NCBI RefSeq assembly: GCF_054482595.1
Contig: NZ_CM137008.1
Reading direction: 5' to 3' (one strand)
DNA length: 64,000 nt
Part shown: piece after piece, positions 46,104-64,000 of the stretch
Position numbering within the stretch: position 1 is the first letter of the stretch
Layout: every line of letters begins with the position of its first letter
The notes under the pieces: model-generated
Seen by the model: only the letters and a program-made list of their open reading frames with translations
The model's database searches: none
What the model was told of the DNA's origin: nothing
Translations under genes and position numbers: made by a program

Positions 46104-46136
46104 TGGCGAATTAATCAGCAGTCAGCAGCGCGGCAC

Positions 46137-46164
46137 TTGCTAAGGAGAGCGTAAGGTTTATAAT
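46137..46164 (+). promoter_or_regulatory. Candidate sigma-70 promoter of glyU
   Basis: TTGCTA (46137-46142), 16-nt spacer, TATAAT (46159-46164), about 18 nt upstream of the mature tRNA 5' end. Confidence 0.55.
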
Positions 46165-46181
46165 GCCTTACGCATCTCGAA

Positions 46182-46255
46182 GCGGGCGTAGTTCAATGGT
46201 AGAACGAGAGCTTCCCAAGCTCTATACGAGGGTTCGATTCCCTTCGCCCGCTCCA
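46182..46255 (+). tRNA. glyU: tRNA-Gly (anticodon CCC)
   Basis: 74 nt: 7-bp acceptor stem GCGGGCG/CGCCCGC, anticodon loop CTTCCCAAG, T-loop GGTTCGATTCC, 3' CCA encoded. Confidence 0.95.
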
Positions 46256-46344
46256 AAACTTCCCTAACGTATTCATTCCACTATCTTTTTCTAAACTATA
46301 CGTGACGGCGCTCGTGATCCTCCTACAAAGGGGTCATACAGCCG

Positions 46345-48288: not shown

Positions 48289-48461
48289 GATGTGCCAAAC
48301 GCGCCAGGAAGCTCTATGGCGCGTTTTTTATCAAGGGTAGTGGAAATCATGGTGCGGAATTTGCGGCGCTTTCGTAGCTCGACTGGCGCAGCTAGATGAA
48401 TCAGATGTAACCTTCAACAAGCAGCCTCTTTCGCAATATTTAAACAACTAGCGGAGTATGG

Positions 48462-48677
48462 ATGTTAATGGCGACCTACAGACAAATTGCCGATGATGTT
48501 AAATCCCGAACGGGGAGAACAGTCAAAACATGTTGGATAGCGCATGTTAAGTCATTGCATGGGCTAACCCGCCGCGTATCTCCAAACCGCATTAGCACCG
48601 AAAGCCGTGTTTATCCTTGCCCTGATAAATGGGTTGCGGAGATCGAGCAATCAATGAGAAATCTGGGCGAGCTTTAG
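48462..48677 (+). CDS. Small DNA-binding protein, possibly AlpA/excisionase-like
   Basis: 71-aa ORF downstream of the integrase; C-terminal KWVAEIEQSM resembles the AlpA-family W-x-x-E-I motif; weak assignment. Confidence 0.35.
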   Translation: MLMATYRQIADDVKSRTGRTVKTCWIAHVKSLHGLTRRVSPNRISTESRVYPCPDKWVAEIEQSMRNLGEL

Positions 48678-49035
48678 CTCTTTACTGCGCCGCTTAACTT
48701 TTGAGTCTGTTTGGCTCTATAAGGACTGTCTCGCCGCCACGGAAATTTTCGGACGCAATGCCTGAGAGGGAGCTTCCAAACCTAGGACTTCCACTTTCCC
48801 GCACCCAACTTATCCGGCTGCTTTTAACCGCGAACACGTTGAAGGTTAACAACGTTTAGTTCATGTCTGACTGAAAGGAACGGCCACCGACAAACACCGT
48901 TAGAGAAGGTATGTAAGCTGATAGTTGAGTTGCTATATATACAGTTATTAAGAGAACTGCACCCAGACCAGCAGGAATGCAGCTTCTTTCCTGCTGATTG
49001 TCACTTTTTTCTGGAATAAGGGAACGAGCGGTAGT

Positions 49036-50052
49036 TCAAACGTGGAGACGACGTAAGGCGCCCTTGACGGCGTTTTGCAGATCGCTAACAACCGCCAGAT
49101 GAGAGCTTTCTTTCCGCAGACGCTTGTCACCGTTGACCATCATCCAGCTACGTTTATCCCTACGCCCGATGTTATTGAATGAATGCAAGCCGCGCTCGGC
49201 TGTTGCGTCGTTCACCCTACGAACTGCGTTGATAGCGGTAAACCTGAACATATCACCGTTAGCCATCATTTCAGGCTCGATTGGTTTGCGAAATTTGAAC
49301 AGGTGAGCGAGGGTTTCAAATCGAAAGTGTTGTATGTCGTTAAGGCGGTTAAGAGAGTAGTGAGTGAGCACAGCACCTTTTAACGTGACTTCAACACGAG
49401 CGCGTTGCTTTTCTACAGGTAGTTTCTGACCGTCGTCAGTGCATTTGTGGTAGACATGCCACGAGATCTTGTCCCACTTGTTACCCGTTCTCAGGTTCCA
49501 TTCAGGATTGATACGAACATCCTGAACATCAAGGAAAACATTTTGTCGAGTTACGGGATTGTATTGTCGGGCTTTGGTTCCCGGACTGAACAGGGAACTT
49601 TGAAGCCGATAGGTCATCGCATTTGTAGCGGTAATCGACCGGGCTTTGTGCCAGAAATCGCAGAAGACTTCGACCCCCACAATTTGCGGCTCGTAAGCAA
49701 ATGGGAAACGATTTTGTAATTGGTCGAGGGCGGCTTCCAACTTCCCGTTATGGTTTGCTAGTAGATCGCGAAAGCGAATCCGAAAAACGTTGTTAGTGTT
49801 GCTTATGATGGGCTTTACCCAAGGTTTGACGTAGTTACCGGGACGGTGTTCGCACGATGCCAATTTTGAGATACGTAGACCGCAGGGTTCAACCCAGAGT
49901 TTTAATCCGGTGATTTTAAGTAATTCTTCCTGAACATAGCGATGCTGGGTCAGTCTAGATAAGCTGATCGTTATGTCCAGCCAGTCGATCCCGGCTGAGA
50001 CTTTAAAGAATTTGCGGTCTGCTTCGGCAGCTTTGCATTCTCGACTCTTCAT
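49036..50052 (-). CDS. Hypothetical protein, possibly YagK/YfjJ-like (inovirus Gp2-type replication-associated)
   Basis: 338-aa ORF; N-terminal GIDWLDITIS motif and placement beside integrase/AlpA-like genes as in CP4-57-type elements; assignment from memory only. Confidence 0.4.
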   Translation of the reverse strand: MKSRECKAAEADRKFFKVSAGIDWLDITISLSRLTQHRYVQEELLKITGLKLWVEPCGLRISKLASCEHRPGNYVKPWVKPIISNTNNVFRIRFRDLLANHNGKLEAALDQLQNRFPFAYEPQIVGVEVFCDFWHKARSITATNAMTYRLQSSLFSPGTKARQYNPVTRQNVFLDVQDVRINPEWNLRTGNKWDKISWHVYHKCTDDGQKLPVEKQRARVEVTLKGAVLTHYSLNRLNDIQHFRFETLAHLFKFRKPIEPEMMANGDMFRFTAINAVRRVNDATAERGLHSFNNIGRRDKRSWMMVNGDKRLRKESSHLAVVSDLQNAVKGALRRLHV

Positions 50053-50173
50053 AGTGTGGCCTTATTGAACGGAATCTCAAACTGCCATCAGGGTAATTCG
50101 AACTGAGCAGGTTTGAGAGCATTCGAGCAAGGTAGCATAACAATTTTAAGATAAAAACCTTACTTATCAACTA

Positions 50174-50198
50174 ACTGCGTTCATATTCTGAACGCAGT
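50174..50198. promoter_or_regulatory. Perfect 10-bp inverted repeat (candidate operator) in divergent intergenic region
   Basis: actgcgttca-tattc-tgaacgcagt between the YfjJ-like gene and the serine recombinase gene. Confidence 0.4.
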
Positions 50199-50355
50199 AG
50201 TCGTTGTTAACTTAAAGGCATGAGAACACTGTCGTTTTTCATATACAAAGGGTGCTTCGGCTCACCTGTAGCGATTCAGAGAAAGCACATGGTGCTATCT
50301 GGTAAAGCCGTCAGCCAGCCTAATATGTCTTACCACTTTTGAGCGCCAACAAACG

Positions 50356-50457
50356 ACCGTTTTCTGGCACCTTTCGATCGCACACTTTCACACTGTTGGA
50401 AAATTAGCCTTGGCTTTTCTGGCAGGCCATCCTAAGTTGACACCGTTTTCTGGCAGG
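50356..50457 (+). repeat. Three direct repeats of TTTTCTGGCA upstream of the serine recombinase gene
   Basis: ccgttttctggcac (50358-50370), gcttttctggcagg (50413-50426), ccgttttctggcagg (50444-50457); 20-125 bp upstream of the recombinase start. Confidence 0.45.
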
Positions 50458-50477
50458 GGCCGGAAGAGGAGATGACT

Positions 50478-51041
50478 ATGGCGATTTTTGGCTACGGGCG
50501 CGTTTCGACATCGCAGCAGGATACTGAGAACCAGCGTTTGGAACTTGAGCAAGCTGGATGGACTTTCGACTTTTGGTTTACTGATGTTGTTAGCGGGAAG
50601 GTTCCTGCGCTGCAACGCAAAGCGTTTTCCGAAATGCTCAGCAAAATCCGCGATGGTGAAACGCTGGTTGTTGCCAAACTCGACCGACTGGGACGCGATG
50701 CGATTGATGTTCTCCAGACTGTCAGGGCGATGGCCGAGCGTAATATCAAGGTCATTGTCCACCAGCTTGGCACAACGGATCTCTCCTCTGCTGCCGGTAA
50801 ACTTCTGTTGTCGATGCTGTCAGCAGTTGCGGAGATGGAACGTGACCTACTGATTGAGAGGACCCATGCGGGTTTGTTGCGGGCAAAAGCTGAAGGCAAG
50901 AAGCTGGGAAGACCGTCGAAAATCGCCCCAGAAGTCCATAGGCTGATTATTGAGAAAAAGAATAATGGAGCCAGTGTCAGCGCACTAGCGAGGGAGTATG
51001 GCGTTTCCAGAGCGACTATAGCTGCACTATTAGATTATTAG
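50478..51041 (+). CDS. Serine recombinase (resolvase / DNA-invertase family)
   Basis: Supplied ORF 50472-51041; N-terminal GYGRVSTSQQ catalytic-Ser motif, KLDRLGRD, C-terminal HTH; second ATG at 50478 has better SD spacing. Confidence 0.88.
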   Translation: MAIFGYGRVSTSQQDTENQRLELEQAGWTFDFWFTDVVSGKVPALQRKAFSEMLSKIRDGETLVVAKLDRLGRDAIDVLQTVRAMAERNIKVIVHQLGTTDLSSAAGKLLLSMLSAVAEMERDLLIERTHAGLLRAKAEGKKLGRPSKIAPEVHRLIIEKKNNGASVSALAREYGVSRATIAALLDY

Positions 51042-51127
51042 CAATTTAGATTTTTATTACAACTTCTGAATGGCAAGAGTGCTAATCTTGGAGAGTAAAA
51101 GCCCCCAAATGGGGGCTAAGTTAATAA

Positions 51128-52903
51128 CTAATAATGGACGTTTGCGATGAATTGAGGGAGAAGTTCTTTAAAATCATCTCTATACATATCCATATCACTC
51201 TGGAAACGAGAGATTATTTCTGTAATTTCTTTGCTTTTGGATAATCTTCCTGCTGTAGCTGGTTCTAACAGTGCAGATCTTGTTAATACCCTTTTTATTA
51301 CAGGGATCCATAACTCCTTCGCATTTTCTCTATTGACGCCATCTTTGAAGGATAATGAATATTTATTAGGTATCGCTGAACCTAATATTATTTCCAATAT
51401 GCTTGCTATAGCATGAATCATTAACAGTGATACGCCAGGTTGGGTCAATAGCTTATGTTTAATAGTATCTATTTCAGGAAGCTGGTTATGCCTAAATTGT
51501 TCATTAAAATCCGATTTTATCTGGCTTATAGCTTCATTTAAAGAATAGACAAAGATAATATGACCTAGAGTAATTGTATCATCAAAAGCCTTTTTATAGA
51601 GATCCTCATCATCCCAAATATCTTTTTTTCGATGATATGCACTTGTAGGATGAGCATGAAAAGCGATCAGGATTTGTGCAACTGTATCCGTTGGTAATAA
51701 AATTCTTTTTTGAGCCGGAGTTAACACTTGGCGAAGGCCACCTGTATATAAAGCTTCCTTATTTTTCTCGAAATCCTTTCTTAATCTTTTTTGTATAGAA
51801 TCACTGGAGCGAAAATCTGAGCGCAAGACCTTGTTTTGTGAATTATTCGCTAGAGTGATTTCATTAATTAGTTCGGGATTATTAACTCTTATGAACCTAA
51901 TTGCAACTCTTAGCGTATCATCTGGATCTTTCCCTAAATTTGAAATACTACCAGTAGTTTGAGCACCATTGACAATAGAAATACCAGTAACACTTTTAAT
52001 TTGACCGAGTGTTTTGGATTCGTCAATGAAATCAATTTCAAAATCATGGACTAAGGCAGTGATTCCGTTATTAAATACAAAGAAATTTCCTGGGTGTGTT
52101 TTAGCCGTGTTTTGTATTTCATTATTTATTGAGAGGTCTTTTTTATTACTTCCTAAATAAGACCTTACATTAGCGCTGAATAGTTTATCTTCACCGTAGC
52201 TATTATATAGTTCTTTAATAAATTTCCCTGGCATAAGGGTAGAAAATGAGGCCCAGTTTTCATTAGAGTTTTGATAAAAGCCATGCATACCAGTCAGCGA
52301 TATTTTATCTGATATCAAAATTGGACTGTGTTGAGAGTTATATAATTCATCAAGTGAACTTAAACCCATTTGCTTGGAGCTTATTCTCAGGTTATCAATA
52401 TGATAAATTGAGTTTAATTTGTCCATAATTGAACGCCCAATCGAATGTAAAGGTTTCTCACATTCTGGTGTTTCAGGGCAGTTATGAACAAACCATACAT
52501 TTATTTTCTCAATTTCATTATTTCTTAAAGCATCTCTTGCATCTTTTACCTGATCCCTTATCCTCAGAGGTATATTCTCTATATCAGCGGAAAGCAACGC
52601 GGTTTCTGCATAAGCTGTTTCTTGGGCCTTAGACGGCTTGGCCCCTTGAGGTCGAAATATAGTAGATTGATAAGATTGTATAAGATATATTTGTTTGCTT
52701 TCTCTATCGGTCATTAATATGTCTATATTTTCATCATCTCCCCCTTCAGTTATTATGTCGGGAGCTATCAATTCAATGCTGTCTATATTGTTATGTAACT
52801 CTATTGCATATAATGCACAATTTAAATTACCATATTTTTCTAGATCTTTTCTCTGTTGCAATGCTGACCAGAAAGAACTATCTGAAAGCTGTGTATATGT
52901 CAT
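51128..52903 (-). CDS. Hypothetical 591-aa protein, candidate abortive-infection (AIPR-like) phage-defence protein
   Basis: Long uninterrupted ORF in a visibly AT-rich segment with A/T-rich codon usage unlike flanking core genes; no Walker A motif; family assignment by size/context only. Confidence 0.6.
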   Translation of the reverse strand: MTYTQLSDSSFWSALQQRKDLEKYGNLNCALYAIELHNNIDSIELIAPDIITEGGDDENIDILMTDRESKQIYLIQSYQSTIFRPQGAKPSKAQETAYAETALLSADIENIPLRIRDQVKDARDALRNNEIEKINVWFVHNCPETPECEKPLHSIGRSIMDKLNSIYHIDNLRISSKQMGLSSLDELYNSQHSPILISDKISLTGMHGFYQNSNENWASFSTLMPGKFIKELYNSYGEDKLFSANVRSYLGSNKKDLSINNEIQNTAKTHPGNFFVFNNGITALVHDFEIDFIDESKTLGQIKSVTGISIVNGAQTTGSISNLGKDPDDTLRVAIRFIRVNNPELINEITLANNSQNKVLRSDFRSSDSIQKRLRKDFEKNKEALYTGGLRQVLTPAQKRILLPTDTVAQILIAFHAHPTSAYHRKKDIWDDEDLYKKAFDDTITLGHIIFVYSLNEAISQIKSDFNEQFRHNQLPEIDTIKHKLLTQPGVSLLMIHAIASILEIILGSAIPNKYSLSFKDGVNRENAKELWIPVIKRVLTRSALLEPATAGRLSKSKEITEIISRFQSDMDMYRDDFKELLPQFIANVHY

Positions 52904-53053
52904 GATAAAACCCTTTTTATTAATATGTAAATTTTATCTCATTCTATCTAAAATCATTTTTTTATATCTAATGATATAACATTAAATGTATGTGAAATAT
53001 TTAATGGTATCTGCTATGCCTTTGTTTATTAAAGCACAGTCTTCAAATCAGGG

Positions 53054-53161
53054 TCAACCAAACCACAGTATATTATATCCAACTATTGGATGTCGGTAAG
53101 CGACTAAGGCTAGTTGAGGTAACACATAAATAATACAATACCTTAGGGTATTGAGTTTCAT
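53054..53161 (-). CDS. Possible small ORF (35 aa, hydrophobic) with strong Shine-Dalgarno
   Basis: Minus-strand GAAGGAGGGACAGG-ATG...TGA encoding [35 protein letters not shown]; lies between IS2 and the 591-aa gene; several rare codons, so may be non-coding. Confidence 0.2.
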
Positions 53162-53289
53162 CCTGTCCCTCCTTCTACGAACGTATCCACGCAGCGACTA
53201 GACTGGCCCCCTGAATCTCCAGACAACCAATATCACTTATTTAAGTGATAGTCTTAATACTAGTTTTTAGACTAGTCATTGGAGAGCAG

Positions 53290-53655
53290 ATGATTGATGT
53301 CTTAGGACCGGAGAAACGCAGACGGCGTACTACACAGGAAAAGATCGCTATTGTTCAGCAGAGTTTTGAACCGGGAATGACAGTCTCCCTTGTTGCCCGG
53401 CAACACGGTGTGGCAGCCAGCCAGTTATTTCTCTGGCGCAAGCAATACCAGGAGGGAAGTCTTACTGCTGTGGCCGCAGGAGAACAGGTCGTTCCTGCCT
53501 CTGAACTTGCTGCCGCCATGAAGCAGATTAAAGAACTCCAGCGCCTGCTCGGCAAAAAAACGATGGAAAATGAACTCCTTAAAGAAGCCGTTGAATACGG
53601 GCGTGCAAAAAAGTGGATAGCGCACGCGCCCTTATTGCCCGGGGATGGGGAGTAA
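53290..53655 (+). CDS. insC: IS2 transposase OrfA
   Basis: [41 protein letters not shown], matches remembered IS2 InsC. Confidence 0.95.
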
Positions 53656-54518
53656 GCTTAGTCAGCCGTTGTCTCCGGGTGTCGCGTGCGCAGTTGCACG
53701 TCATTCTCAGACGAACCGATGACTGGAAAGATGGTCGCCGCAGCCGTCACTCAGATGATACGGATGTGCTTCTCCGTATACACCATGTTATCGGAGAGCT
53801 GCCCACATATGGTTATCGTCGGGTATGGGCGCTGCTTCGCAGACAGGCCGAACTTGATGGTATGCCTGCGATCAATGCCAAACGTATTTACCGGATCATG
53901 CGCCAGAATGCGCTGTTGCTTGAGCGAAAACCCGCTGTACCGCCATCGAAACGGGCACATACCGGCAGAGTGGCTGTGAAAGAAAGTAATCAGCGATGGT
54001 GCTCTGACGGGTTCGAGTTCCGCTGTGATAACGGAGAAAAACTGCGAGTCACGTTCGCGCTGGACTGCTGTGACCGTGAGGCACTGCACTGGGCGGTCAC
54101 TACGGGCGGCTTCAACAGTGAAACAGTACAGGACGTCATGCTGGGAGCGGTGGAACGCCGTTTCGGCAACGAGCTTCCGGCGTCTCCAGTAGAGTGGCTG
54201 ACGGATAATGGTTCATGCTACCGGGCTAATGAAACACGGCAGTTTGCCCGGATGTTGGGGCTTGAACCGAAGAACACGGCGGTGCGGAGTCCGGAGAGTA
54301 ACGGCATAGCAGAGAGCTTCGTGAAAACGATAAAGCGTGACTACATCAGTGTCATGCCCAAACCAGACGGGTTAACGGCAGCAAAGAACCTTGCAGAGGC
54401 ATTCGAGCATTATAACGAATGGCATCCGCATAGTGCACTGGGTTATCGCTCGCCACGGGAATATCTACGGCAGCAAGCCAGTAATGGGTTAAGTGATAAC
54501 AGGTGTCTGGAAATATAG
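53613..54518 (+). CDS. insD: IS2 transposase OrfB (DDE integrase domain)
   Basis: 301-aa ORF overlapping insC in the -1 frame, matches remembered IS2 InsD. Confidence 0.95.
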
Positions 54519-54640
54519 GGGCAAATCCAGCGACTTCTTGAGCTTCGCCTGAAAAATTTGAAACCATGCGCTTGATGAGAATTGCATCTAGGTTACATTT
54601 GTGGGAACAGATCGTTGCTAGGGTAGCTATAAAATAAAAA

Positions 54641-55393
54641 TTATAATTTATTCATGCAGTTAGTGTAAATGAATGCCGCTGAAACCTGAGCATCTTGCTT
54701 GGGGTGTTCATATACATAGTCAACGAAGGTTTTATAGAGCGCAATCATCTGGGGTGTGACTTCGGACTTGCCATTCATATTATCGAGACGCTGATAATAG
54801 TCTGCTTTGGTCATTCCTCCGTTTCGGCCTTTGGTTACGTTTGCGGTGAATTGTGCTATACCCATACACATTTGATCTTTATGGTTATTCGTTTTATCCG
54901 GGTGAAGAGCACCTTCCAACACTTTATCACCGCTGATGGCATGTTGCGCCCACGCTGAATTGTTGGCGATAAACTTTTTGGAGCCGGTGGCAATACCGTA
55001 TTCGATGCGAATGCCATTATCGTGATAGCTACCGTCAGCATCTTTAGTCGCTAACTTTAGAGATATGCGGCAACCGGGGAGCGTTTTGTGTTCTTGCACC
55101 GAAGCAATAACGGTGTCTGTATCGCAATCAGCAAAGCTGTATGTGGGATTAACATAGGTATTCGTTTTGAGTAGTAACCCGGTTAAGCCGTTTTTATAGC
55201 CTTTTGCCGGTAGGGTTTTAAAGGCGTTACGGTCGCCATCCTTAATCGCTTCCCGAAACTGATCCATCCCAATGCGGATTGCCAGTTGATCGATGCTCTC
55301 GGCTGCATATGATGCAGATGATGTAGCGATTAATATGATGCTCAGCAAAAACTTGGCTGGAAAAACGGGTTTAATAATTCGTGTTTGTGACAT
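54641..55393 (-). CDS. Secreted protein of unknown function (signal peptide)
   Basis: Supplied ORF 54641-55492; probable start MSQTRIIKPVFPAKFLLSIILIATSSASYAAE (55393) with AAGGA SD; predicted signal peptide cleavage near SYA-AE; several Cys. Confidence 0.6.
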   Translation of the reverse strand: MSQTRIIKPVFPAKFLLSIILIATSSASYAAESIDQLAIRIGMDQFREAIKDGDRNAFKTLPAKGYKNGLTGLLLKTNTYVNPTYSFADCDTDTVIASVQEHKTLPGCRISLKLATKDADGSYHDNGIRIEYGIATGSKKFIANNSAWAQHAISGDKVLEGALHPDKTNNHKDQMCMGIAQFTANVTKGRNGGMTKADYYQRLDNMNGKSEVTPQMIALYKTFVDYVYEHPKQDAQVSAAFIYTNCMNKL

Positions 55394-55510
55394 GTTGTTA
55401 TCCTTCAGAATCCACCCCTGCGGTGATTTTAATCGCATGATAACGCTTTGATTCAAAATGTCACTATTGGAGCGTGGCTCTTTAGTGGACATCTAATCAA
55501 ATTCAGGAGG

Positions 55511-55975
55511 ATGAAAAAGACCCTTCGATTTTTATTTGGACAACGTGTTAAGGCTCTACGTATAGCCGCCGGAATGAGCCAGGAAGCGTTTGCTGATCGG
55601 TGTGGATTTGCGCGTAGCTATATGAGCCGCATTGAACGTGGTTGCTCTAACGCGTCTCTTGATGCGATTGAGGTATTGGCTGAAGCTTTAAGTGTTGAGC
55701 CTTGGCAATTGTTAGCGTCCGATTCTTCCGAAGATAGCGCCCCGGAATTGTTGGTTCCATACGCGGCCGATGGCTCGTGCTTTCATCCCGGACTAGCGAG
55801 CACGCGCGATGGTTCGTTTGGTGTAGGTGATAAAGCCGCTCAGAAGCGTTTTGGCTCGTTTTTAGAAGCATTAGAGTATCTACGTAACATGAAGACAGCA
55901 AAATGGCGCAGACCCAATTCTAGCGGCAACTGGGGTATCGTATCAGCGGTTCGTTGGGACAAGCTGAGAAAGTAG
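55511..55975 (+). CDS. HTH (XRE-family) transcriptional regulator with C-terminal domain of unknown function
   Basis: Supplied ORF 55448-55975; start at 55511 (AGGAGG + ATG); N-terminal LRIAAGMSQEAFADRCGFARSYMSRIERG helix-turn-helix; about 80-aa uncharacterised C-terminal extension. Confidence 0.75.
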   Translation: MKKTLRFLFGQRVKALRIAAGMSQEAFADRCGFARSYMSRIERGCSNASLDAIEVLAEALSVEPWQLLASDSSEDSAPELLVPYAADGSCFHPGLASTRDGSFGVGDKAAQKRFGSFLEALEYLRNMKTAKWRRPNSSGNWGIVSAVRWDKLRK

Positions 55976-56150
55976 CTCAGGTGTAAGTTTCAGATTTTAA
56001 ATTACTGAATAAATAAACAGCTACCACATGAGGTGAATGGCCGCACGTTTTATCTGGCACTGATAACTATCAGCATTCCTAAAACACCAAAATACGGGTG
56101 CGTTACGTAGGCGTTACAGTGGCGTTTCACTTCAGCAATGGAGAGTGCTT

Positions 56151-57023
56151 TTGAAAAATAATCATTTGATATCATATGGTTTCCTAACCTCGCTGAGTGA
56201 TATTGAATTACTGTCGCTTCACTCCGAAATTTTAACGCAGTTGCGTTTTAGAGGTGTCATTCGCACCAAGAATAATCCTGTTGGTGACTATGCTGAATGG
56301 CTGGTTTCTAATGCACTGGGTATGACTCTTCTCAGTAATTCGTCGGCGGGTGCTGATGCCATTGATGCTGATGGCCTGAAAGTGCAGATCAAAGCTAGGA
56401 GAGTTACGCCGGATAATCCTTCCCGGCAGCTTAGTGCCTTGCGTAACTATGAGGCAGCCGAATTTGATTATTTAATCGCGGTTATTTTCGATGAGACTTA
56501 CAACATTCTTGATGCTTACAAAATCCCACATGAAGTAATACGAGATTATGCACGGCATAGTGACCACGTTAACGCACATATCGTTAACCTCAAGGGCGCG
56601 ATTCTTACTGATCCCCGAGTTAGTTCCATCAAAGAAGACTTGATTGTCAGGAGTTCGGCTTCAGTCAATGAAGCGGCTATGCAAACCCTTCCACCCGAAC
56701 CTATGGAAGAGGTTTTGAATCAACCAGAGAAGATAACGAGTAGTGTTACCTTGGTCAGCCTCCTTAAGGCTATCGGGATGGAGTGCTTTGTAAACTACTA
56801 CCATCATTTTGCCGATTCAAATTTATCAAGCGCTGATATCATTGAGCAAATGCACTCACGTGAGGGTTACACAGAGAAAAGTTGCCGGGGCCGTCTCAGT
56901 AAAGCGCGAAAAGTGATCAGGGATGGTTTAAGTATTGAGGCTTTGACGTTGATCGCTGACTCTGGGCGAATACAAGATTCTGTCAGAAGTGACGCGCTAA
57001 AACTTATCAGCGTTCTGGAGTGA
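56151..57023 (+). CDS. Hypothetical protein with Mrr-like (PD-(D/E)xK) nuclease motif
   Basis: Supplied ORF 56145-57023 (GTG); TTG at 56151 has GGAGAG SD; residues about 47-87 GDYAEWLVSNALGMTLLSNSSAGADAIDADGLKVQIKARRV fit the Mrr-cat pattern (Asp cluster then Q-x-K); C-terminal about 150 aa unassigned. Confidence 0.6.
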   Translation: MKNNHLISYGFLTSLSDIELLSLHSEILTQLRFRGVIRTKNNPVGDYAEWLVSNALGMTLLSNSSAGADAIDADGLKVQIKARRVTPDNPSRQLSALRNYEAAEFDYLIAVIFDETYNILDAYKIPHEVIRDYARHSDHVNAHIVNLKGAILTDPRVSSIKEDLIVRSSASVNEAAMQTLPPEPMEEVLNQPEKITSSVTLVSLLKAIGMECFVNYYHHFADSNLSSADIIEQMHSREGYTEKSCRGRLSKARKVIRDGLSIEALTLIADSGRIQDSVRSDALKLISVLE

Positions 57024-57076
57024 AGCGGTTTGCAAAACGTTGTAGTTCCTCCTACAAAACCCTCCTACAATGCACC

Positions 57077-57539
57077 GGTAATGACTCCAACTTATTGATA
57101 GTGTTTTATGTTCAGATAATGCCCGATGACTTTGTCATGCAGCTCCACCGATTTTGAGAACGACAGCGACTTCCGTCCCAGCCGTGCCAGGTGCTGCCTC
57201 AGATTCAGGTTATGCCGCTCAATTCGCTGCGTATATCGCTTGCTGATTACGTGCAGCTTTCCCTTCAGGCGGGATTCATACAGCGGCCAGCCATCCGTCA
57301 TCCATATCACCACGTCAAAGGGTGACAGCAGGCTCATAAGACGCCCCAGCGTCGCCATAGTGCGTTCACCGAATACGTGCGCAACAACCGTCTTCCGGAG
57401 CCTGTCATACGCGTAAAACAGCCAGCGCTGGCGCGATTTAGCCCCGACGTATCCCCACTGTTCGTCCATTTCCGCGCAGACGATGACGTCACTGCCCGGC
57501 TGTATGCGCGAGGTTACCGACTGCGGCCTGAGTTTTTTA
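57077..57539 (-). mobile_element. IS1 remnant (about 463 bp, truncated by IS26)
   Basis: Begins with IS1 terminal repeat GGTAATGACTCCAACTTATTGATAGTG; encodes the C-terminal part of InsB (supplied ORF 57092-57586); IS1 sequence stops at the IS26 end. Confidence 0.9.
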
Positions 57540-58359
57540 GGCACTGTTGCAAAGTTAGCGATGAGGCAGCCTTTTGTCTTATTCAAAGGCCTTACATTTC
57601 AAAAACTCTGCTTACCAGGCGCATTTCGCCCAGGGGATCACCATAATAAAATGCTGAGGCCTGGCCTTTGCGTAGTGCACGCATCACCTCAATACCTTTG
57701 ATGGTGGCGTAAGCCGTCTTCATGGATTTAAATCCCAGCGTGGCGCCGATTATCCGTTTCAGTTTGCCATGATCGCATTCAATCACGTTGTTCCGGTACT
57801 TAATCTGTCGGTGTTCAACGTCAGACGGGCACCGGCCTTCGCGTTTGAGCAGAGCAAGCGCGCGACCATAGGCGGGCGCTTTATCCGTGTTGATGAATCG
57901 CGGGATCTGCCACTTCTTCACGTTGTTGAGGATTTTACCCAGAAACCGGTATGCAGCTTTGCTGTTACGACGGGAGGAGAGATAAAAATCGACAGTGCGG
58001 CCCCGGCTGTCGACGGCCCGGTACAGATACGCCCAGCGGCCATTGACCTTCACGTAGGTTTCATCCATGTGCCACGGGCAAAGATCGGAAGGGTTACGCC
58101 AGTACCAGCGCAGCCGTTTTTCCATTTCAGGCGCATAACGCTGAACCCAGCGGTAAATCGTGGAGTGATCGACATTCACTCCGCGTTCAGCCAGCATCTC
58201 CTGCAGCTCACGGTAACTGATGCCGTATTTGCAGTACCAGCGTACGGCCCACAGAATGATGTCACGCTGAAAATGCCGGCCTTTGAATGGGTTCATGTGC
58301 AGCTCCATCAGCAAAAGGGGATGATAAGTTTATCACCACCGACTATTTGCAACAGTGCC
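57540..58359 (-). mobile_element. IS26 (IS6 family), copy 1
   Basis: 820 bp bounded by GGCACTGTTGCAAA terminal inverted repeats (57540 and 58346-58359); carries tnp26. Confidence 0.95.
57592..58296 (-). CDS. tnpA: IS26 transposase Tnp26
   Basis: Supplied ORF 57592-58314; start [31 protein letters not shown] (234 aa). Confidence 0.95.
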
Positions 58360-58461
58360 TCCTTTTTGATAATCTCATGACCAAAATCCCTTAACGTGAG
58401 TTTTCGTTCCACTGAGCGTCAGACCCCGTATAGTGTTTTGCAGTTTAGAGGAGATATCGCG

Positions 58462-59322
58462 ATGCATACGCGGAAGGCAATAACGGAGGCGCTTCAAAAA
58501 CTCGGAGTCCAAACCGGTGACCTCTTGATGGTGCATGCCTCACTTAAAGCGATTGGTCCGGTCGAAGGAGGAGCGGAGACGGTCGTTGCCGCGTTACGCT
58601 CCGCGGTTGGGCCGACTGGCACTGTGATGGGATACGCGTCGTGGGACCGATCACCCTACGAGGAGACTCTGAATGGCGCTCGGCTGGATGACGAAGCCCG
58701 CCGTACCTGGCTGCCGTTCGATCCCGCAACAGCCGGGACTTACCGTGGGTTCGGCCTGCTGAATCAATTTCTGGTTCAAGCCCCCGGCGCGCGGCGCAGC
58801 GCGCACCCCGATGCATCGATGGTCGCGGTTGGTCCGCTGGCTGAAACGCTGACGGAGCCTCACGAACTCGGTCACGCCTTGGGGGAAGGATCGCCCGTCG
58901 AGCGGTTCGTTCGCCTTGGCGGGAAGGCCCTGCTGTTGGGTGCGCCGCTAAACTCCGTTACCGCATTGCACTACGCCGAGGCGGTTGCCGATATCCCCAA
59001 CAAACGGTGGGTGACGTATGAGATGCCGATGCTTGGAAGAGACGGTGAAGTCGCCTGGAAAACGGCATCGGATTACGATTCAAACGGCATTCTCGATTGC
59101 TTTGCTATCGAAGGAAAGCCGGATGCGGTTGAAACTATAGCAAATGCTTACGTGAAGCTCGGTCGCCATCGAGAAGGTGTCGTGGGCTTTGCTCAGTGCT
59201 ACCTGTTCGACGCGCAGGACATCGTGACGTTCGGCGTCACCTATCTTGAGAAGCATTTCGGAACCACTCCGATCGTGCCTCCGCACGAGGCCGTCGAGCG
59301 CTCTTGCGAGCCTTCAGGTTAG
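58462..59322 (+). CDS. aac(3)-II: Aminoglycoside N(3)-acetyltransferase, AAC(3)-II type (gentamicin/tobramycin resistance)
   Basis: Supplied ORF 58396-59322; from MHTRKAITEALQKLGVQTGDLLMVHASLKAIGPVEGG matches remembered AAC(3)-IIa/IId (286 aa); sub-variant not resolvable by eye. Confidence 0.9.
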   Translation: MHTRKAITEALQKLGVQTGDLLMVHASLKAIGPVEGGAETVVAALRSAVGPTGTVMGYASWDRSPYEETLNGARLDDEARRTWLPFDPATAGTYRGFGLLNQFLVQAPGARRSAHPDASMVAVGPLAETLTEPHELGHALGEGSPVERFVRLGGKALLLGAPLNSVTALHYAEAVADIPNKRWVTYEMPMLGRDGEVAWKTASDYDSNGILDCFAIEGKPDAVETIANAYVKLGRHREGVVGFAQCYLFDAQDIVTFGVTYLEKHFGTTPIVPPHEAVERSCEPSG

Positions 59323-59334
59323 AGGCCGTCGACA

Positions 59335-59547
59335 ATGATAATCTGGATCAACGGACCTTTCGGCGCCGGAAAGACGACGCTCGCTAAGCGGCTGCGCGAT
59401 CGGCGTTCCAAATCGCTGATCTTTGACCCCGAGGAAATCGGGTTCGTGGTGAAAGAAACGGTCCCCATGCCAGCGAGCGGAGACTATCAGGATCTCCCCT
59501 TGTGGAGGGGACTTACGATCGCGGCGGTCAGGGAGATTCGAAGGAAT
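59335..59547 (+). pseudogene. tmrB: Truncated tunicamycin-resistance gene tmrB (5' part only, cut by IS26)
   Basis: MIIWINGPFGAGKTTLAKRL P-loop N-terminus; reading frame runs into the IS26 terminal repeat at 59548. Confidence 0.8.
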
Positions 59548-60367
59548 GGCACTGTTGCAAATAGTCGGTGGTGATAAACTTATCATCCCCTTTTGCTGAT
59601 GGAGCTGCACATGAACCCATTCAAAGGCCGGCATTTTCAGCGTGACATCATTCTGTGGGCCGTACGCTGGTACTGCAAATACGGCATCAGTTACCGTGAG
59701 CTGCAGGAGATGCTGGCTGAACGCGGAGTGAATGTCGATCACTCCACGATTTACCGCTGGGTTCAGCGTTATGCGCCTGAAATGGAAAAACGGCTGCGCT
59801 GGTACTGGCGTAACCCTTCCGATCTTTGCCCGTGGCACATGGATGAAACCTACGTGAAGGTCAATGGCCGCTGGGCGTATCTGTACCGGGCCGTCGACAG
59901 CCGGGGCCGCACTGTCGATTTTTATCTCTCCTCCCGTCGTAACAGCAAAGCTGCATACCGGTTTCTGGGTAAAATCCTCAACAACGTGAAGAAGTGGCAG
60001 ATCCCGCGATTCATCAACACGGATAAAGCGCCCGCCTATGGTCGCGCGCTTGCTCTGCTCAAACGCGAAGGCCGGTGCCCGTCTGACGTTGAACACCGAC
60101 AGATTAAGTACCGGAACAACGTGATTGAATGCGATCATGGCAAACTGAAACGGATAATCGGCGCCACGCTGGGATTTAAATCCATGAAGACGGCTTACGC
60201 CACCATCAAAGGTATTGAGGTGATGCGTGCACTACGCAAAGGCCAGGCCTCAGCATTTTATTATGGTGATCCCCTGGGCGAAATGCGCCTGGTAAGCAGA
60301 GTTTTTGAAATGTAAGGCCTTTGAATAAGACAAAAGGCTGCCTCATCGCTAACTTTGCAACAGTGCC
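59548..60367 (+). mobile_element. IS26 (IS6 family), copy 2, inverted relative to copy 1
   Basis: 820 bp bounded by GGCACTGTTGCAAA repeats (59548 and 60354-60367); transposase protein identical to copy 1. Confidence 0.95.
59611..60315 (+). CDS. tnpA: IS26 transposase Tnp26
   Basis: Supplied ORF 59593-60315, same protein as 57592-58296 on the opposite strand. Confidence 0.95.
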   Translation: MNPFKGRHFQRDIILWAVRWYCKYGISYRELQEMLAERGVNVDHSTIYRWVQRYAPEMEKRLRWYWRNPSDLCPWHMDETYVKVNGRWAYLYRAVDSRGRTVDFYLSSRRNSKAAYRFLGKILNNVKKWQIPRFINTDKAPAYGRALALLKREGRCPSDVEHRQIKYRNNVIECDHGKLKRIIGATLGFKSMKTAYATIKGIEVMRALRKGQASAFYYGDPLGEMRLVSRVFEM

Positions 60368-60436
60368 GGATTGAATATAACCGACGTGACTGTTACATTT
60401 AGGTGGCTAAACCCGTCAAGCCCTCAGGAGTGAATC

Positions 60437-61342
60437 ATGACCGTAGTCACGACCGCCGATACCTCCCAACTGTACGCACTTGCAGCCCGACATGGGCTCA
60501 AGCTCCATGGCCCGCTGACTGTCAATGAGCTTGGGCTCGACTATAGGATCGTGATCGCCACCGTCGACGATGGACGTCGGTGGGTGCTGCGCATCCCGCG
60601 CCGAGCCGAGGTAAGCGCGAAGGTCGAACCAGAGGCGCGGGTGCTGGCAATGCTCAAGAATCGCCTGCCGTTCGCGGTGCCGGACTGGCGCGTGGCCAAC
60701 GCCGAGCTCGTTGCCTATCCCATGCTCGAAGACTCGACTGCGATGGTCATCCAGCCTGGTTCGTCCACGCCCGACTGGGTCGTGCCGCAGGACTCGGAGG
60801 TCTTCGCGGAGAGCTTCGCGACCGCGCTCGCCGCCCTGCATGCCGTCCCCATTTCCGCCGCCGTGGATGCGGGGATGCTCATCCGTACACCGACGCAGGC
60901 CCGTCAGAAGGTGGCCGACGACGTTGACCGCGTCCGACGCGAGTTCGTGGTGAACGACAAGCGCCTCCACCGGTGGCAGCGCTGGCTCGACGACGATTCG
61001 TCGTGGCCAGATTTCTCCGTGGTGGTGCATGGCGATCTCTACGTGGGCCATGTGCTCATCGACAACACGGAGCGCGTCAGCGGGATGATCGACTGGAGCG
61101 AGGCCCGCGTTGATGACCCTGCCATCGACATGGCCGCGCACCTTATGGTCTTTGGTGAAGAGGGGCTCGCGAAGCTCCTCCTCACGTATGAAGCGGCCGG
61201 TGGCCGGGTGTGGCCGCGGCTCGCCCACCACATCGCGGAGCGCCTTGCGTTCGGGGCGGTCACCTACGCACTCTTCGCCCTCGACTCGGGTAACGAAGAG
61301 TACCTCGCTGCGGCGAAGGCGCAGCTCGCCGCAGCGGAATGA
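60437..61342 (+). CDS. mph(A): Macrolide 2'-phosphotransferase Mph(A)
   Basis: 301-aa ORF MTVVTTADTSQLYALAARHGLKLHGPLTVNELGLDYRIV matches remembered Mph(A); high-GC segment. Confidence 0.93.
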   Translation: MTVVTTADTSQLYALAARHGLKLHGPLTVNELGLDYRIVIATVDDGRRWVLRIPRRAEVSAKVEPEARVLAMLKNRLPFAVPDWRVANAELVAYPMLEDSTAMVIQPGSSTPDWVVPQDSEVFAESFATALAALHAVPISAAVDAGMLIRTPTQARQKVADDVDRVRREFVVNDKRLHRWQRWLDDDSSWPDFSVVVHGDLYVGHVLIDNTERVSGMIDWSEARVDDPAIDMAAHLMVFGEEGLAKLLLTYEAAGGRVWPRLAHHIAERLAFGAVTYALFALDSGNEEYLAAAKAQLAAAE

Positions 61343-62577
61343 GCGAACGTCGATATAGCCCGCTCGCGACGCTGTTCGCGGCGACCTTTCTCTTCCGGAT
61401 CGGCAACGCGGTGGCGGCCCTCGCGCTTCCATGGTTCGTCCTGTCTCATACAAAGAGCGCGGCCTGGGCGGGCGCCACGGCCGCTAGCAGCGTCATCGCG
61501 ACCATCATCGGCGCGTGGGTTGGTGGTGGCCTCGTCGATCGGTTCGGGCGCGCGCCCGTCGCATTGATCTCGGGTGTGGTGGGCGGCGTGGCCATGGCGA
61601 GCATCCCACTGCTCGATGCCGTTGGCGCCCTCTCGAACACTGGGCTGATCGCTTGCGTGGTGCTCGGTGCCGCGTTCGACGCACCCGGTATGGCCGCGCA
61701 GGACAGTGAGCTGCCCAAACTCGGCCACGTCGCCGGGCTCTCCGTTGAGCGCGTCTCGTCACTGAAAGCGGTGATCGGGAACGTCGCGATTCTAGGTGGC
61801 CCGGCCCTTGGGGGGGCCGCAATCGGCCTGCTTGGCGCTGCGCCAACGCTCGGGCTGACGGCGTTCTGCTCCGTCCTTGCAGGTCTGCTCGGCGCGTGGG
61901 TGCTTCCCGCGCGTGCCGCTCGGACGATGACCACGACGGCGACTCTCTCCATGCGCGCCGGCGTCGCTTTTCTCTGGAGCGAACCCCTGCTGCGCCCTCT
62001 CTTTGGTATAGTGATGATCTTCGTGGGCATCGTTGGCGCCAACGGCAGCGTCATCATGCCTGCGCTGTTTGTAGATGCAGGACGCCAAGTAGCAGAGCTC
62101 GGGCTGTTCTCCTCAATGATGGGGGCTGGTGGTCTCCTTGGCATTGCCATTCATGCGTCGGTCGGCGCCCGGATATCAGCGCAGAACTGGCTGGCGGTGG
62201 CATTTTGTGGCTCTGCGGTGGGCTCGCTTCTGCTTTCACAGTTGCCAGGCGTGCCGGTGCTGATGTTGTTGGGCGCGCTCGTGGGACTGCTGACCGGCTC
62301 AGTCTCTCCCATTCTCAACGCTGCCATCTACAACCGCACGCCGCCAGAACTTCTCGGCCGGGTACTCGGCACGGTCTCGGCGGTGATGCTGTCAGCCTCG
62401 CCCATGGTTATGCTTGCGGCCGGCGCGTTTGTCGACCTTGCTGGTCCGCTCCCTGGCCTCGTTGTATCGGCCGTGTTTGCGGGGCTCGTGGCTCTACTCT
62501 CGCTCCGTCTTCAATTTGCTACAATGGCGGCGGCAGCCACAGCCTCCGCCCCAACCCATACAGAAGGTGAACACTGA
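61339..62577 (+). CDS. mrx(A): MFS-type hydrophobic protein Mrx(A)
   Basis: 412-aa polytopic membrane ORF overlapping the mph(A) stop by 4 nt, as in the mph(A) operon. Confidence 0.88.
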   Translation: MSERRYSPLATLFAATFLFRIGNAVAALALPWFVLSHTKSAAWAGATAASSVIATIIGAWVGGGLVDRFGRAPVALISGVVGGVAMASIPLLDAVGALSNTGLIACVVLGAAFDAPGMAAQDSELPKLGHVAGLSVERVSSLKAVIGNVAILGGPALGGAAIGLLGAAPTLGLTAFCSVLAGLLGAWVLPARAARTMTTTATLSMRAGVAFLWSEPLLRPLFGIVMIFVGIVGANGSVIMPALFVDAGRQVAELGLFSSMMGAGGLLGIAIHASVGARISAQNWLAVAFCGSAVGSLLLSQLPGVPVLMLLGALVGLLTGSVSPILNAAIYNRTPPELLGRVLGTVSAVMLSASPMVMLAAGAFVDLAGPLPGLVVSAVFAGLVALLSLRLQFATMAAAATASAPTHTEGEH

Positions 62578-63161
62578 TGCCCCGCCCCAAGCTCAAGTCC
62601 GATGACGAGGTACTCGAGGCCGCCACCGTAGTGCTGAAGCGTTGCGGTCCCATAGAGTTCACGCTCAGCGGAGTAGCAAAGGAGGTGGGGCTCTCCCGCG
62701 CAGCGTTAATCCAGCGCTTCACCAACCGCGATACGCTGCTGGTGAGGATGATGGAGCGCGGCGTCGAGCAGGTGCGGCATTACCTGAATGCGATACCGAT
62801 AGGCGCAGGGCCGCAAGGGCTCTGGGAATTTTTGCAGGTGCTCGTTCGGAGCATGAACACTCGCAACGACTTCTCGGTGAACTATCTCATCTCCTGGTAC
62901 GAGCTCCAGGTGCCGGAGCTACGCACGCTTGCGATCCAGCGGAACCGCGCGGTGGTGGAGGGGATCCGCAAGCGACTGCCCCCAGGTGCTCCTGCGGCAG
63001 CTGAGTTGCTCCTGCACTCGGTCATCGCTGGCGCGACGATGCAGTGGGCCGTCGATCCGGATGGTGAGCTAGCTGATCATGTGCTGGCTCAGATCGCTGC
63101 CATCCTGTGTTTAATGTTTCCCGAACACGACGATTTCCAACTCCTCCAGGCACATGCGTAA
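62577..63161 (+). CDS. mphR(A): TetR-family repressor MphR(A)
   Basis: 194-aa ORF with N-terminal TetR HTH (FTLSGVAKEVGLSRAALIQRFTNRDTLL); start overlaps the mrx stop. Confidence 0.9.
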   Translation: MPRPKLKSDDEVLEAATVVLKRCGPIEFTLSGVAKEVGLSRAALIQRFTNRDTLLVRMMERGVEQVRHYLNAIPIGAGPQGLWEFLQVLVRSMNTRNDFSVNYLISWYELQVPELRTLAIQRNRAVVEGIRKRLPPGAPAAAELLLHSVIAGATMQWAVDPDGELADHVLAQIAAILCLMFPEHDDFQLLQAHA

Positions 63162-63599
63162 ACGGAGGTGTGCAGAGTCCCTGCGGCAGGCGACGAACAC
63201 GACCGTCGTCGATTAGTACCGGTACGGTCGGTGGTATCGAAGTCTTGATCACCACTCAGGTCTACGGCTTACAAATGGTGACCATCCCGATACTTGCGTC
63301 AGAGCACCGGGCCGATTCTTTGACAGTGAATCACTCCCGTAAGGTTGTGCCGGTGTGGGTGTCCCGGGTCGAGACGATACTCCGCCAATGCGCCCAGCAA
63401 ACAACCTGGCCATCGCAGGTGGTGGGGAGCGGTGTGGCGGATGAGTTGGACAAGTTGGTGTAGCAGCACGAGCACGGCGAGATAACATCGCAGGAGTTCG
63501 ACATGCTCAAGAGACAGCTGATTGCGAATCGCGATGCAGATTCATAACCCGATTGCGGGTTGGCTTCACTCCACCATCACCGAGCAGACTAGCACGGCG

Positions 63600-64000
63600 G
63601 GCTCTGTTGCAAAGATTGGCGGCAGTCAGAGGTAGGCTGTCGCTCTGCGCCGATCAGGCGGCTGCTGCGAAATGGTGGTTGAGCATGCCCATGGCCTCCG
63701 TCAGCGCCGAGGGCCCAATGCCAAAAGCTCTCTCCACAAGGCGCACCTCGCCCCTGATGCCGGGCTGCAGGCACCAGGGGCGAGCCTGTCCTTTGCGCAG
63801 GGCTCGCATGACTTCGAATCCCTTGATCGTGGCATAGGCCGTGGGGATCGATTTGAAACCGCGCACCGGCTTGATCAGTATCTTGAGCTTTCCGTGATCG
63901 GCCTCGATCACGTTATTGAGATACTTCACCTGCCGGTGGGCCGTCTCCCGGTCCAGCTTTCCTTCGCGCTTCAATTCGGTGATCGCTGCACCATAGCTCG
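63600..64000 (-). mobile_element. IS6100 (IS6 family), partial; continues beyond window end
   Basis: Terminal repeat GGCTCTGTTGCAAAGATTGGCGGCAGTCAGAGG at 63600; minus-strand transposase ORF with stop at 63654 and still open at 64000 (IS6-family transposase C-terminus). Confidence 0.85.

Follow-up and report, generated by a model that had tools for sequence, protein, structure and literature searches.

A canonical IS26-mph(A)-mrx(A)-mphR(A)-IS6100 unit in a resistance region probably inserted at the right end of a tRNA-Gly(CCC) island of the Escherichia coli chromosome

Results

An intact macrolide-resistance operon

We analysed a window of 64,000 nucleotides (contig NZ_CM137008.1, assembly GCF_054482595.1), which encodes a macrolide-resistance operon on the plus strand near its right end. 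The first gene, mph(A) (60437-61342), is preceded by an AGGAG ribosome-binding site (60426-60430) and encodes an intact macrolide 2'-phosphotransferase of 301 residues. The protein scored 685 bits against the NCBIfam model NF000254 (cutoff 550), covering positions 1-293 of 293 of the model, and matched PDB entry 5IGH, a solved structure of MPH(2')-I, over its full length (E = 1e-198). Its DNA occurs unchanged in the SM107 chromosome (NZ_CP130667.1), where the coding sequence is annotated as WP_000219391.1. The second gene (61339-62577, plus strand) encodes a transporter of the MFS type of 412 residues and corresponds exactly to the mrx(A) gene annotated in SM107 (WP_000004159.1). Its matches to MFS families of NCBIfam (Tap, TIGR00900) remained below the families' own cutoffs, as expected because Mrx(A) is a distinct family. 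The third gene, mphR(A) (62577-63161, plus strand), encodes a TetR-family macrolide-binding repressor of 194 residues, annotated as WP_001137892.1 in the identical SM107 segment; residues 1-194 aligned with residues 2-195 of PDB entries 3FRQ and 3G56 (E = 1.9e-127). The stop codon of mph(A) overlaps the start of mrx(A) in an ATGA (61339-61342), and that of mrx(A) overlaps the start of mphR(A) in a TGATG (62575-62579). An initial annotation of this DNA had described a complete three-gene operon with overlapping starts and stops, and this description was correct.

The whole of positions 60368-64000 (3,633 bp) aligned as a single piece, with 100% identity, with many plasmids of Enterobacterales, including NZ_CP022125.1 and NZ_CP022533.1, and the genes are annotated as mph(A), mrx(A) and mphR(A) in these copies. 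Thousands of plasmids carry such identical copies. No frameshift or substitution was found in this segment in comparison with the plasmid copies, and mph(A), checked for divergence and frameshifts, is identical to them and to the SM107 copy. This comparison with known units also confirmed that the arrangement is the usual one. Among 5,426 complete E. coli genomes, 1,374 (about a quarter) contain most of the unit, and approximately 10% of its copies are chromosomal. A GC profile bore out the earlier observation that the operon is markedly more GC-rich than the rest of the window. The GC content of positions 60368-63599 is 63.1%, while that of the whole window is 50.9%, that of the island described below 45.5% and that of positions 51000-53000 33.5%.

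A candidate MphR(A) operator upstream of mph(A)

A palindrome search upstream of mph(A) revealed the pseudo-palindrome ATATAACCGAC-GT-GACTGTTACAT at 60375-60398. The candidate operator (about 60374-60399) has half-sites of 11-12 bp separated by 2 bp. Its aligned counterpart, at the same position upstream of an environmental relative of the operon, is a perfect palindrome, ATAACCGACGCGTCGGTTAT. Geometry and this comparison point to a putative native promoter on the plus strand (60371-60399), with TTGAAT (60371-60376) as the -35 and TACATT (60394-60399) as the -10 hexamer. These hexamers are weak (8/12 consensus matches), and a consensus promoter scan made no call of an mph(A) promoter. The predicted operator would fill the spacer between the two hexamers, in a promoter that begins 3 bp inside the IS26 boundary. 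MphR is an erythromycin-responsive repressor of the TetR family (PMC4551912, PMC6895282), and the 2-bp spacer reported for its operator (PMC6895282) agrees with the palindrome upstream of mph(A); no match to the operator sequence string was found in the literature searched.

Insertion sequences and neighbouring cargo

The operon is directly preceded by a copy of IS26 (copy 2; 59548-60367, plus strand), as the initial annotation had stated. This copy is 820 bp long and has perfect 14-bp terminal repeats, of which the one at 60354-60367 makes position 60368 the first base past the element. IS26 copy 1 (57540-58359, minus strand), with its IS6-family transposase ORF (57592-58314), is a perfect 820-bp copy of it in inverted orientation. 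The segment between the two (58360-59547, plus strand) contains aac(3)-IId (58462-59322; 541 bits against NCBIfam AAC(3)-II), annotated as such in the identical SM107 segment, and an ORF for a tmrB-like ATPase (59335-59574), which is truncated and runs into IS26 copy 2. An IS26 pseudo-compound transposon or translocatable unit was considered and rejected, as it needs two directly oriented IS26 copies and the visible pair is inverted.

The right boundary of the mph(A) segment is IS6100, not IS26. Between mphR(A) and IS6100 lies a 438-bp spacer (63162-63599, plus strand), carried with the unit, in which translation and a Pfam search identified a remnant of a SHOCT-domain gene (i-E 1.9e-4) with an in-frame TAG at 63461-63463. 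This spacer showed no homology to the DNA downstream of the environmental operons. The left 401 bp of IS6100 (63600-64000, minus strand) comprise its terminal repeat, GGCTCTGTTGCAAA, at 63600-63613 and the C-terminus of its transposase, encoded on the minus strand from 63654. The IS6100 that had been placed downstream of the operon is thus supported by its terminal repeat, but only these 401 bp of an element of roughly 880 bp fall within the window, the remainder, like the right boundary of the resistance region, lying beyond position 64000. Both junctions are those of the standard unit: IS26 abuts the leader of mph(A), and IS6100 starts 438 bp past mphR(A). Positions 57540-64000 (6,461 bp) are an exact substring of the SM107 chromosome, where the identical segment runs on into a complete IS6100 transposase gene.

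The resistance region lies at the right end of a tRNA-linked island

A tRNA-Gly(CCC) gene, identified with ARAGORN (46182-46255, plus strand), serves as the attachment site of an integrase island (46256-57076). The island contains an integrase ORF (46345-48288), annotated as a site-specific integrase in relatives, an AIPR gene (51128-52903) and a DUF6998 gene (56145-57023); the order actS-tRNA-Gly-integrase is also found in THO-010, Santai and SM107. Except for an IS2 inserted at 53199-54529, the island is 100% identical to the THO-010 chromosome, which represents the empty site, without the IS1 insertion, and carries an attR-like repeat of the tRNA-Gly 3' end (15785-15814 of locus L002). A tRNA gene, an adjacent integrase and, in THO-010, an attR-like direct repeat are thus present, as in a tRNA-linked integrase island; the attR of the chromosome studied here lies beyond position 64000, and the repeat was read from THO-010 only.

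Alignment with the empty site and with Santai (NZ_CP007592.1) showed that positions 57077-57539 (minus strand) correspond to 463 bp of the outer end of an IS1, which is cut off by IS26 and forms the left boundary of the resistance region. In THO-010 coordinates, the IS1 insertion point is 44 bp before the attR-like repeat, which places the resistance region inside the island. The idea that a tRNA-linked island had taken up foreign cargo therefore stands, while the island integrase does not appear to have been the route.

The junction between DUF6998 and IS1 is 100% identical in the complete chromosomes of Santai and SM107, which argues against an assembly contamination. When E. coli genomes were searched for the longer DUF6998-IS1-IS26 junction, only the DUF6998-IS1 part was common. 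The whole 46000-64000 arrangement was absent from the complete E. coli genomes in the collection, the best matches covering either the island or the resistance block. A chromosomal match at a similar coordinate in DETEC-E601 was rejected, as the resistance region there is unrelated.

Discussion

These findings indicate, with a probability of about 0.9, that the locus is the canonical IS26-mph(A)-mrx(A)-mphR(A)-IS6100 unit, carried in a plasmid-type multiresistance region that also holds the adjacent IS26-flanked aac(3)-IId and is inserted in the E. coli chromosome at the right end of the tRNA-Gly(CCC) island, with an IS1 fragment bounding its visible side. The mph(A) unit itself, though of clinical relevance, is already known and biologically ordinary.

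We considered the possibility that a whole plasmid, rather than a discrete resistance region, had been integrated by IS-mediated cointegration. The window ends inside IS6100, IS26 is known to form cointegrates, and the IS1(463 bp)-IS26 junction also occurs in an IncF plasmid. Yet, in Santai and SM107, the same site holds only genes of Tn21/Tn2670-type resistance regions, without plasmid backbone, followed by chromosomal ETT2, and we regard the integration of a complete plasmid as unlikely.

Somewhat less probable still is that the operon, though intact, contributes little to the phenotype, for instance by being repressed at a single chromosomal copy. Its dosage would be lower than on a plasmid, its repressor is intact and the hexamers proposed above are weak. 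However, its sequence is identical to that of functional copies, MphR responds to azithromycin as well as to erythromycin (PMC4551912), and DH5alpha with the complete unit cloned in it reached an azithromycin MIC of >128 μg/mL, up from 1 μg/mL (PMC9009942).

Finally, an assembly chimera, in which the chromosome would have only IS1 (or a Santai-like IS1-bounded region) and the assembler would have jumped within IS1 into a plasmid bearing an IS1(463 bp)-IS26-aac(3)-IId-IS26-mph(A) region, is very improbable: the IS1-IS26 junction does exist on one plasmid, pTE_T100_1, plasmids commonly carry the IS26-aac(3)-IId-IS26-mph(A) module (at least 291 records) and no complete E. coli genome of the collection has the whole arrangement, but the pTE_T100_1 junction leads on to different cargo, aph(3')-Ia and not aac(3)-IId, the 6,461-bp segment is chromosomal in SM107, as are about a tenth of the mph(A) units of complete E. 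coli genomes, Santai and SM107 are independent chromosomes with resistance regions at exactly the same IS1 junction, and the unbroken course of the window through IS1 and two 820-bp IS26 copies into IS6100 implies that the assembly is finished or was made from long reads.

With the chromosomal resistance region as the preferred reading, the anatomy of the locus suggests that the unit moved between replicons through IS26 cointegrates and homologous recombination in IS26 and IS1, rather than through the island integrase. An inversion mediated by IS26 would predict, beyond position 64000, the rest of IS6100, then padR-chrA-sul1-qacEdelta1-cassettes-intI1 (minus strand), the Tn21 genes tnpR and tnpA, and catA1. 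After these would come the 305 bp that the IS1 fragment lacks, adjoining a further IS26 with the flank TAAAAAAC, and then the attR-like repeat and ygeQ.

As for the function of the operon, a dimer of the TetR-family protein MphR(A) would bind the pseudo-palindromic operator and block transcription of the three genes, and erythromycin and related macrolides would release it from the operator by binding to it, as has been shown elsewhere. Mph(A) phosphorylates 14- and 15-membered macrolides at the 2'-OH of their desosamine sugar, at the expense of a nucleotide triphosphate, and so abolishes their binding to the ribosome. The MFS membrane protein Mrx(A) is translationally coupled and needed for high-level resistance. 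Its role may be that of an efflux pump for phosphorylated macrolide, as newer RefSeq annotation has it, and no support for such an efflux by Mrx was found in the literature searched. Work on the identical unit (PMC9009942) suggests that the present copy would confer macrolide resistance by 2'-phosphorylation. In the same study, no resistance was seen with constructs that carried mph(A) on its own or a truncated mphR (PMC9009942). This is not predicted by a pure repressor model, so that reports do not fully agree on the roles of mrx and mphR in the level of resistance.

The unit predicts resistance to azithromycin and erythromycin, and the adjacent aac(3)-IId predicts resistance to gentamicin. 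As the unit is chromosomal, it would pass on the resistance vertically and avoid a plasmid's cost or instability, which is relevant to the surveillance of E. coli and Shigella in places that use azithromycin. Nothing new emerged on the unit itself; the locus is a further example of the accretion of plasmid-type resistance DNA, driven by IS1 and IS26, at a tRNA-linked island. In one E. coli lineage, IS1-bounded resistance regions may have the right end of this island as a recurrent chromosomal landing site.

Comparison with known systems

The canonical IS26-mph(A)-mrx-mphR(A)-IS6100 unit of plasmids is identical to the present one over the IS26 junction, the 69-bp leader, the genes, the spacer and the IS6100 end. 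It is found on plasmids (e.g. as cloned in PMC9009942), whereas the present unit is chromosomal, with IS6100 partly visible.

SM107 has the same IS26-aac(3)-IId-IS26-mph(A)-mrx-mphR-IS6100 block in its chromosome and an identical DUF6998-IS1 junction, but there the neighbour of the block is a truncated chrA instead of IS1, and the block is turned the other way round with respect to the tRNA. Santai (O157:H16) has the same DUF6998-IS1 junction, but no mph(A) and only a truncated IS6100. The AIPR gene, intact in the window, is split in both by an IS1-mediated inversion.

The closest relatives of the operon are high-GC environmental operons, some labelled Myxococcota, the closest named ones being labelled Polyangiaceae and Kofleriaceae. 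The environmental APH-MFS-TetR operons (P0033/P0121 cluster; loci L008-L011 and L016-L019) share the gene order, the 4-nt and 1-nt overlaps, the high GC content and a palindromic operator at the same position, with 78% nucleotide identity and 77% (Mph) and 81% (repressor) protein identity. In contrast to the present unit, they lack IS26 and IS6100, adjoin prophage-like and chromosomal genes on contigs of 64-73% GC, and differ in the C-terminus of the repressor and in the downstream DNA. An 86%-identical Mph labelled K. pneumoniae (P0027) was set aside, its contig being full of split genes, most likely through sequencing error. We know of no identified progenitor of mph(A), and no paper linking mph(A) to Myxococcota, or myxobacteria to a macrolide phosphotransferase, was found in the literature searched. 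We tentatively propose, as a possibility with the odds against it, that the mobile operon descends from a high-GC environmental operon of chromosomal or prophage-associated location and, in addition, that the island's right end is a recurrent landing site. IS26 would then have cut 3 bp upstream of the native -35, and the SHOCT remnant would have been carried along on the other side. The MAGs that bear on this origin are GCA_020633465.1, GCA_029560775.1 and GCA_019637265.1.

Lastly, Mph(B), Mph(E)/Mph(G), Mph(F) and MphH have the APH-type kinase fold and the reaction in common with Mph(A). The models of these families gave only 208-282 bits here, versus curated cutoffs of 500-650, and their partner genes are msr(E) or mef(C), whereas those of mph(A) are mrx and mphR.

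The unit is a complete and known macrolide-resistance operon

The mph(A)-mrx(A)-mphR(A) block is a textbook resistance unit, and the interpretation given in the initial annotation is supported. The ORF list places its three genes on the plus strand, mph(A) at 60437-61342 (301 aa), mrx(A) at 61339-62577 (412 aa) and mphR(A) at 62577-63161 (194 aa). The gene junctions are GGAATGAGC and CACTGATGCCC, indicating that mph(A) and mrx(A) share ATGA and that mrx(A) and mphR(A) share the single A of TGATG. The reading frames and the junctions thus agree with the initial annotation, which had described a complete three-gene operon with overlapping starts and stops. AGGAG is found 6 nt 5' of the mph(A) ATG.

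The Mph(A) protein scored 685 bits against NCBIfam model NF000254 (Mph(A) family; cutoff 550 bits), the other Mph families in NCBIfam each staying far under their own cutoffs, and it matched the solved MPH(2')-I structure 5IGH across all 301 residues (E 1e-198). MphR(A) gave a full-length match to the MphR(A) structures 3FRQ/3G56 (E 1.9e-127), and Mrx(A) had NCBIfam matches of MFS type only. The likeness to known IS26-mph(A)-IS6100 units was confirmed by 100% identity over 3,633 bases, in single alignments, to plasmids of Klebsiella, Enterobacter, Citrobacter, Escherichia and others. The genes of these identical copies carry the annotations mph(A), mrx(A) and mphR(A). In the window mph(A) is neither divergent nor frameshifted. 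Furthermore, window positions 57540-64000 are an exact substring of the chromosome of E. coli SM107 (NZ_CP130667.1), where the CDSs of the matching segment are WP_000219391.1, WP_000004159.1 and WP_001137892.1, with an entire IS6100 after them.

The 438-bp stretch that separates mphR(A) from IS6100 contains a reading frame (63107-63547) with a SHOCT domain at its end (Pfam i-E 1.9e-4). An in-frame TAG breaks this frame at 63461-63463, and it probably represents what is left of a gene of the operon's original host.

Flanking insertion sequences and base composition

A repeat search revealed two perfect, mutually inverted 820-bp copies of IS26 (57540-58359 and 59548-60367), each with 14-bp terminal repeats GGCACTGTTGCAAA. 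They bracket aac(3)-IId and a truncated tmrB-like ATPase gene (58360-59547). As the second copy ends at 60367, position 60368, taken as the start of the unit, is the first base past it, and IS26 is indeed directly upstream. On the other side, the IS6100 terminal repeat GGCTCTGTTGCAAA, related to that of IS26, was found at 63600-63613, and a minus-strand ORF from 63654 to the window end encodes the C-terminal part of an IS6-family transposase. The operon is therefore followed by IS6100 as described, but only 401 bp of this element lie within the window, not a complete copy.

The GC contrast between the unit and its surroundings is real: 63.1% for 60368-63599 (65.6% for mph(A) alone, with a GC3 of 80%) versus 50.9% for the window, 45.5% for the tRNA island (46256-57076) and 33.5% around the AIPR gene (51000-53000). 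The unit is thus more GC-rich than the rest, as first noted.

Predicted operator and resistance mechanism

The 69-bp leader holds ATATAACCGAC-GT-GACTGTTACAT at 60375-60398. At the aligned position, a perfect 20-bp palindrome, ATAACCGACGCGTCGGTTAT, is present in a metagenomic operon that shares the gene order, with 78% nucleotide identity and an 81% identical repressor. This comparison supports the prediction of an MphR operator at 60375-60398, and an operator with a 2-bp central spacer (PMC6895282) agrees with the GT found here. The site occupies the 17 nt that separate TTGAAT (60371-60376) from TACATT (60394-60399); in the metagenomic relative, TAGACA and TATATA are spaced the same way. These findings suggest a native promoter, starting 3 bp past the IS26 end, which would be blocked by bound MphR(A); a simple consensus scan called no promoter for mph(A).

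MphR is a TetR-family repressor responding to erythromycin and azithromycin (PMC4551912). Cloning the complete unit in DH5alpha raised the azithromycin MIC from 1 to >128 ug/mL, and no resistance was obtained with mph(A) alone or with a construct carrying a truncated mphR (PMC9009942), a loss that the simple repressor model does not predict. Recent RefSeq annotation designates Mrx as a phosphorylated-macrolide efflux transporter, a putative role for which a literature search retrieved no supporting paper.

Relatives and possible source of mph(A)

Identity to Mph(A) declines in steps among its relatives: 87% on a 4-kb contig without mrx, 77% for a cluster of environmental operons (P0033/P0121), 72-73% for proteins labelled as from Kofleriaceae and Polyangiaceae MAGs (one on a contig of roughly 2 Mb), 62% in Corallococcus and about 52% in planctomycetes. 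The 77% cluster (loci L008-L011 and L016-L019) shows the same APH-MFS-TetR order and overlaps as mph(A)-mrx-mphR(A). It occurs very widely in metagenomes (>1,000 indexed blocks of the assembly collection), often beside prophage-like genes (baseplate, amidase) and integrases, on contigs of 64-73% GC. This series of relatives and their context fit a high-GC environmental source, possibly Myxococcota, with taxon labels as given by the sources; the literature library searched contained no paper linking mph(A) to Myxococcota.

Prevalence and chromosomal location

At least 2,714 plasmid records cover ≥80% of the mph region, and plasmids also frequently have the IS26-aac(3)-IId-IS26-mph(A) block (at least 291 records). 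Of 5,426 complete E. coli genomes, 1,374 contain ≥80% of the unit, at 202 chromosomal and 1,725 plasmid places. The chromosomal location is moderately uncommon and has been seen before.

The first 57 kb of the window belong to the E. coli chromosome, with xdhABC-actS-tRNA-Gly(CCC) (tRNA at 46182-46255) followed by a 10.8-kb integrase island. Except for IS2, this island is 100% identical to that of THO-010, a strain with an empty site at the island's right end, and of other strains. The IS2 is complete (1,331 bp, 53199-54529), with the target duplication GCGAC (5 bp; 53194-53198 and 54530-54534) on either side. It separates the AIPR gene from the gene that follows, and THO-010 and the other strains with this island lack it. 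The AT-rich gene of the AIPR family (abortive-infection type; 51128-52903, 591 aa) is intact here, whereas in the chromosomes of Santai (NZ_CP007592.1) and SM107 an IS1-mediated inversion of the right part of the island has split the gene.

Chromosomal identity ends at 57076, and an IS1 end begins at 57077. In THO-010 the insertion point is followed, 44 bp further on, by a degenerate copy of the tRNA-Gly 3' end, indicating that IS1 landed just within the right boundary of the island. The DUF6998 gene with the adjoining IS1 (56145-57076) also occurs, at 98.2% identity, on several E. coli plasmids, so plasmids share this end of the island. IS1 runs for 463 bp and is then interrupted by IS26 copy 1, right at the A6C frameshift motif of IS1 (57532-57540; GTTTTTTA|GGCACTG). 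The same IS1(463 bp)|IS26 junction is known from the IncFIA plasmid pTE_T100_1 (NZ_MW574940.1), with aph(3')-Ia next to it instead; the junction is therefore older than the present arrangement, or the site has been reused. Though this plasmid occurrence could favor assembly contamination from a plasmid, a possibility raised by the initial annotation, such an origin of the mph region is unlikely, since the complete chromosomes of Santai and SM107 independently show a 100% identical DUF6998|IS1 junction, with Tn21/Tn2670-type resistance regions at it.

Probable origin of the arrangement

The usual configuration is IS6100 followed by mphR-mrx-mph(A)-IS26, and the order in Santai is IS1-catA1-Tn21-intI1-cassettes-sul1-chrA-padR-IS6100. 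In this window, the mph block runs the opposite way relative to the tRNA and adjoins an IS26 located within IS1. An intramolecular, inverse-orientation transposition of IS26 into IS1 would place the reversed block beside the IS1|IS26 junction; recombination with a plasmid region already having this junction would lead to the same outcome. An inversion of this kind is also seen in SM107, where the endpoint is in chrA/padR instead.
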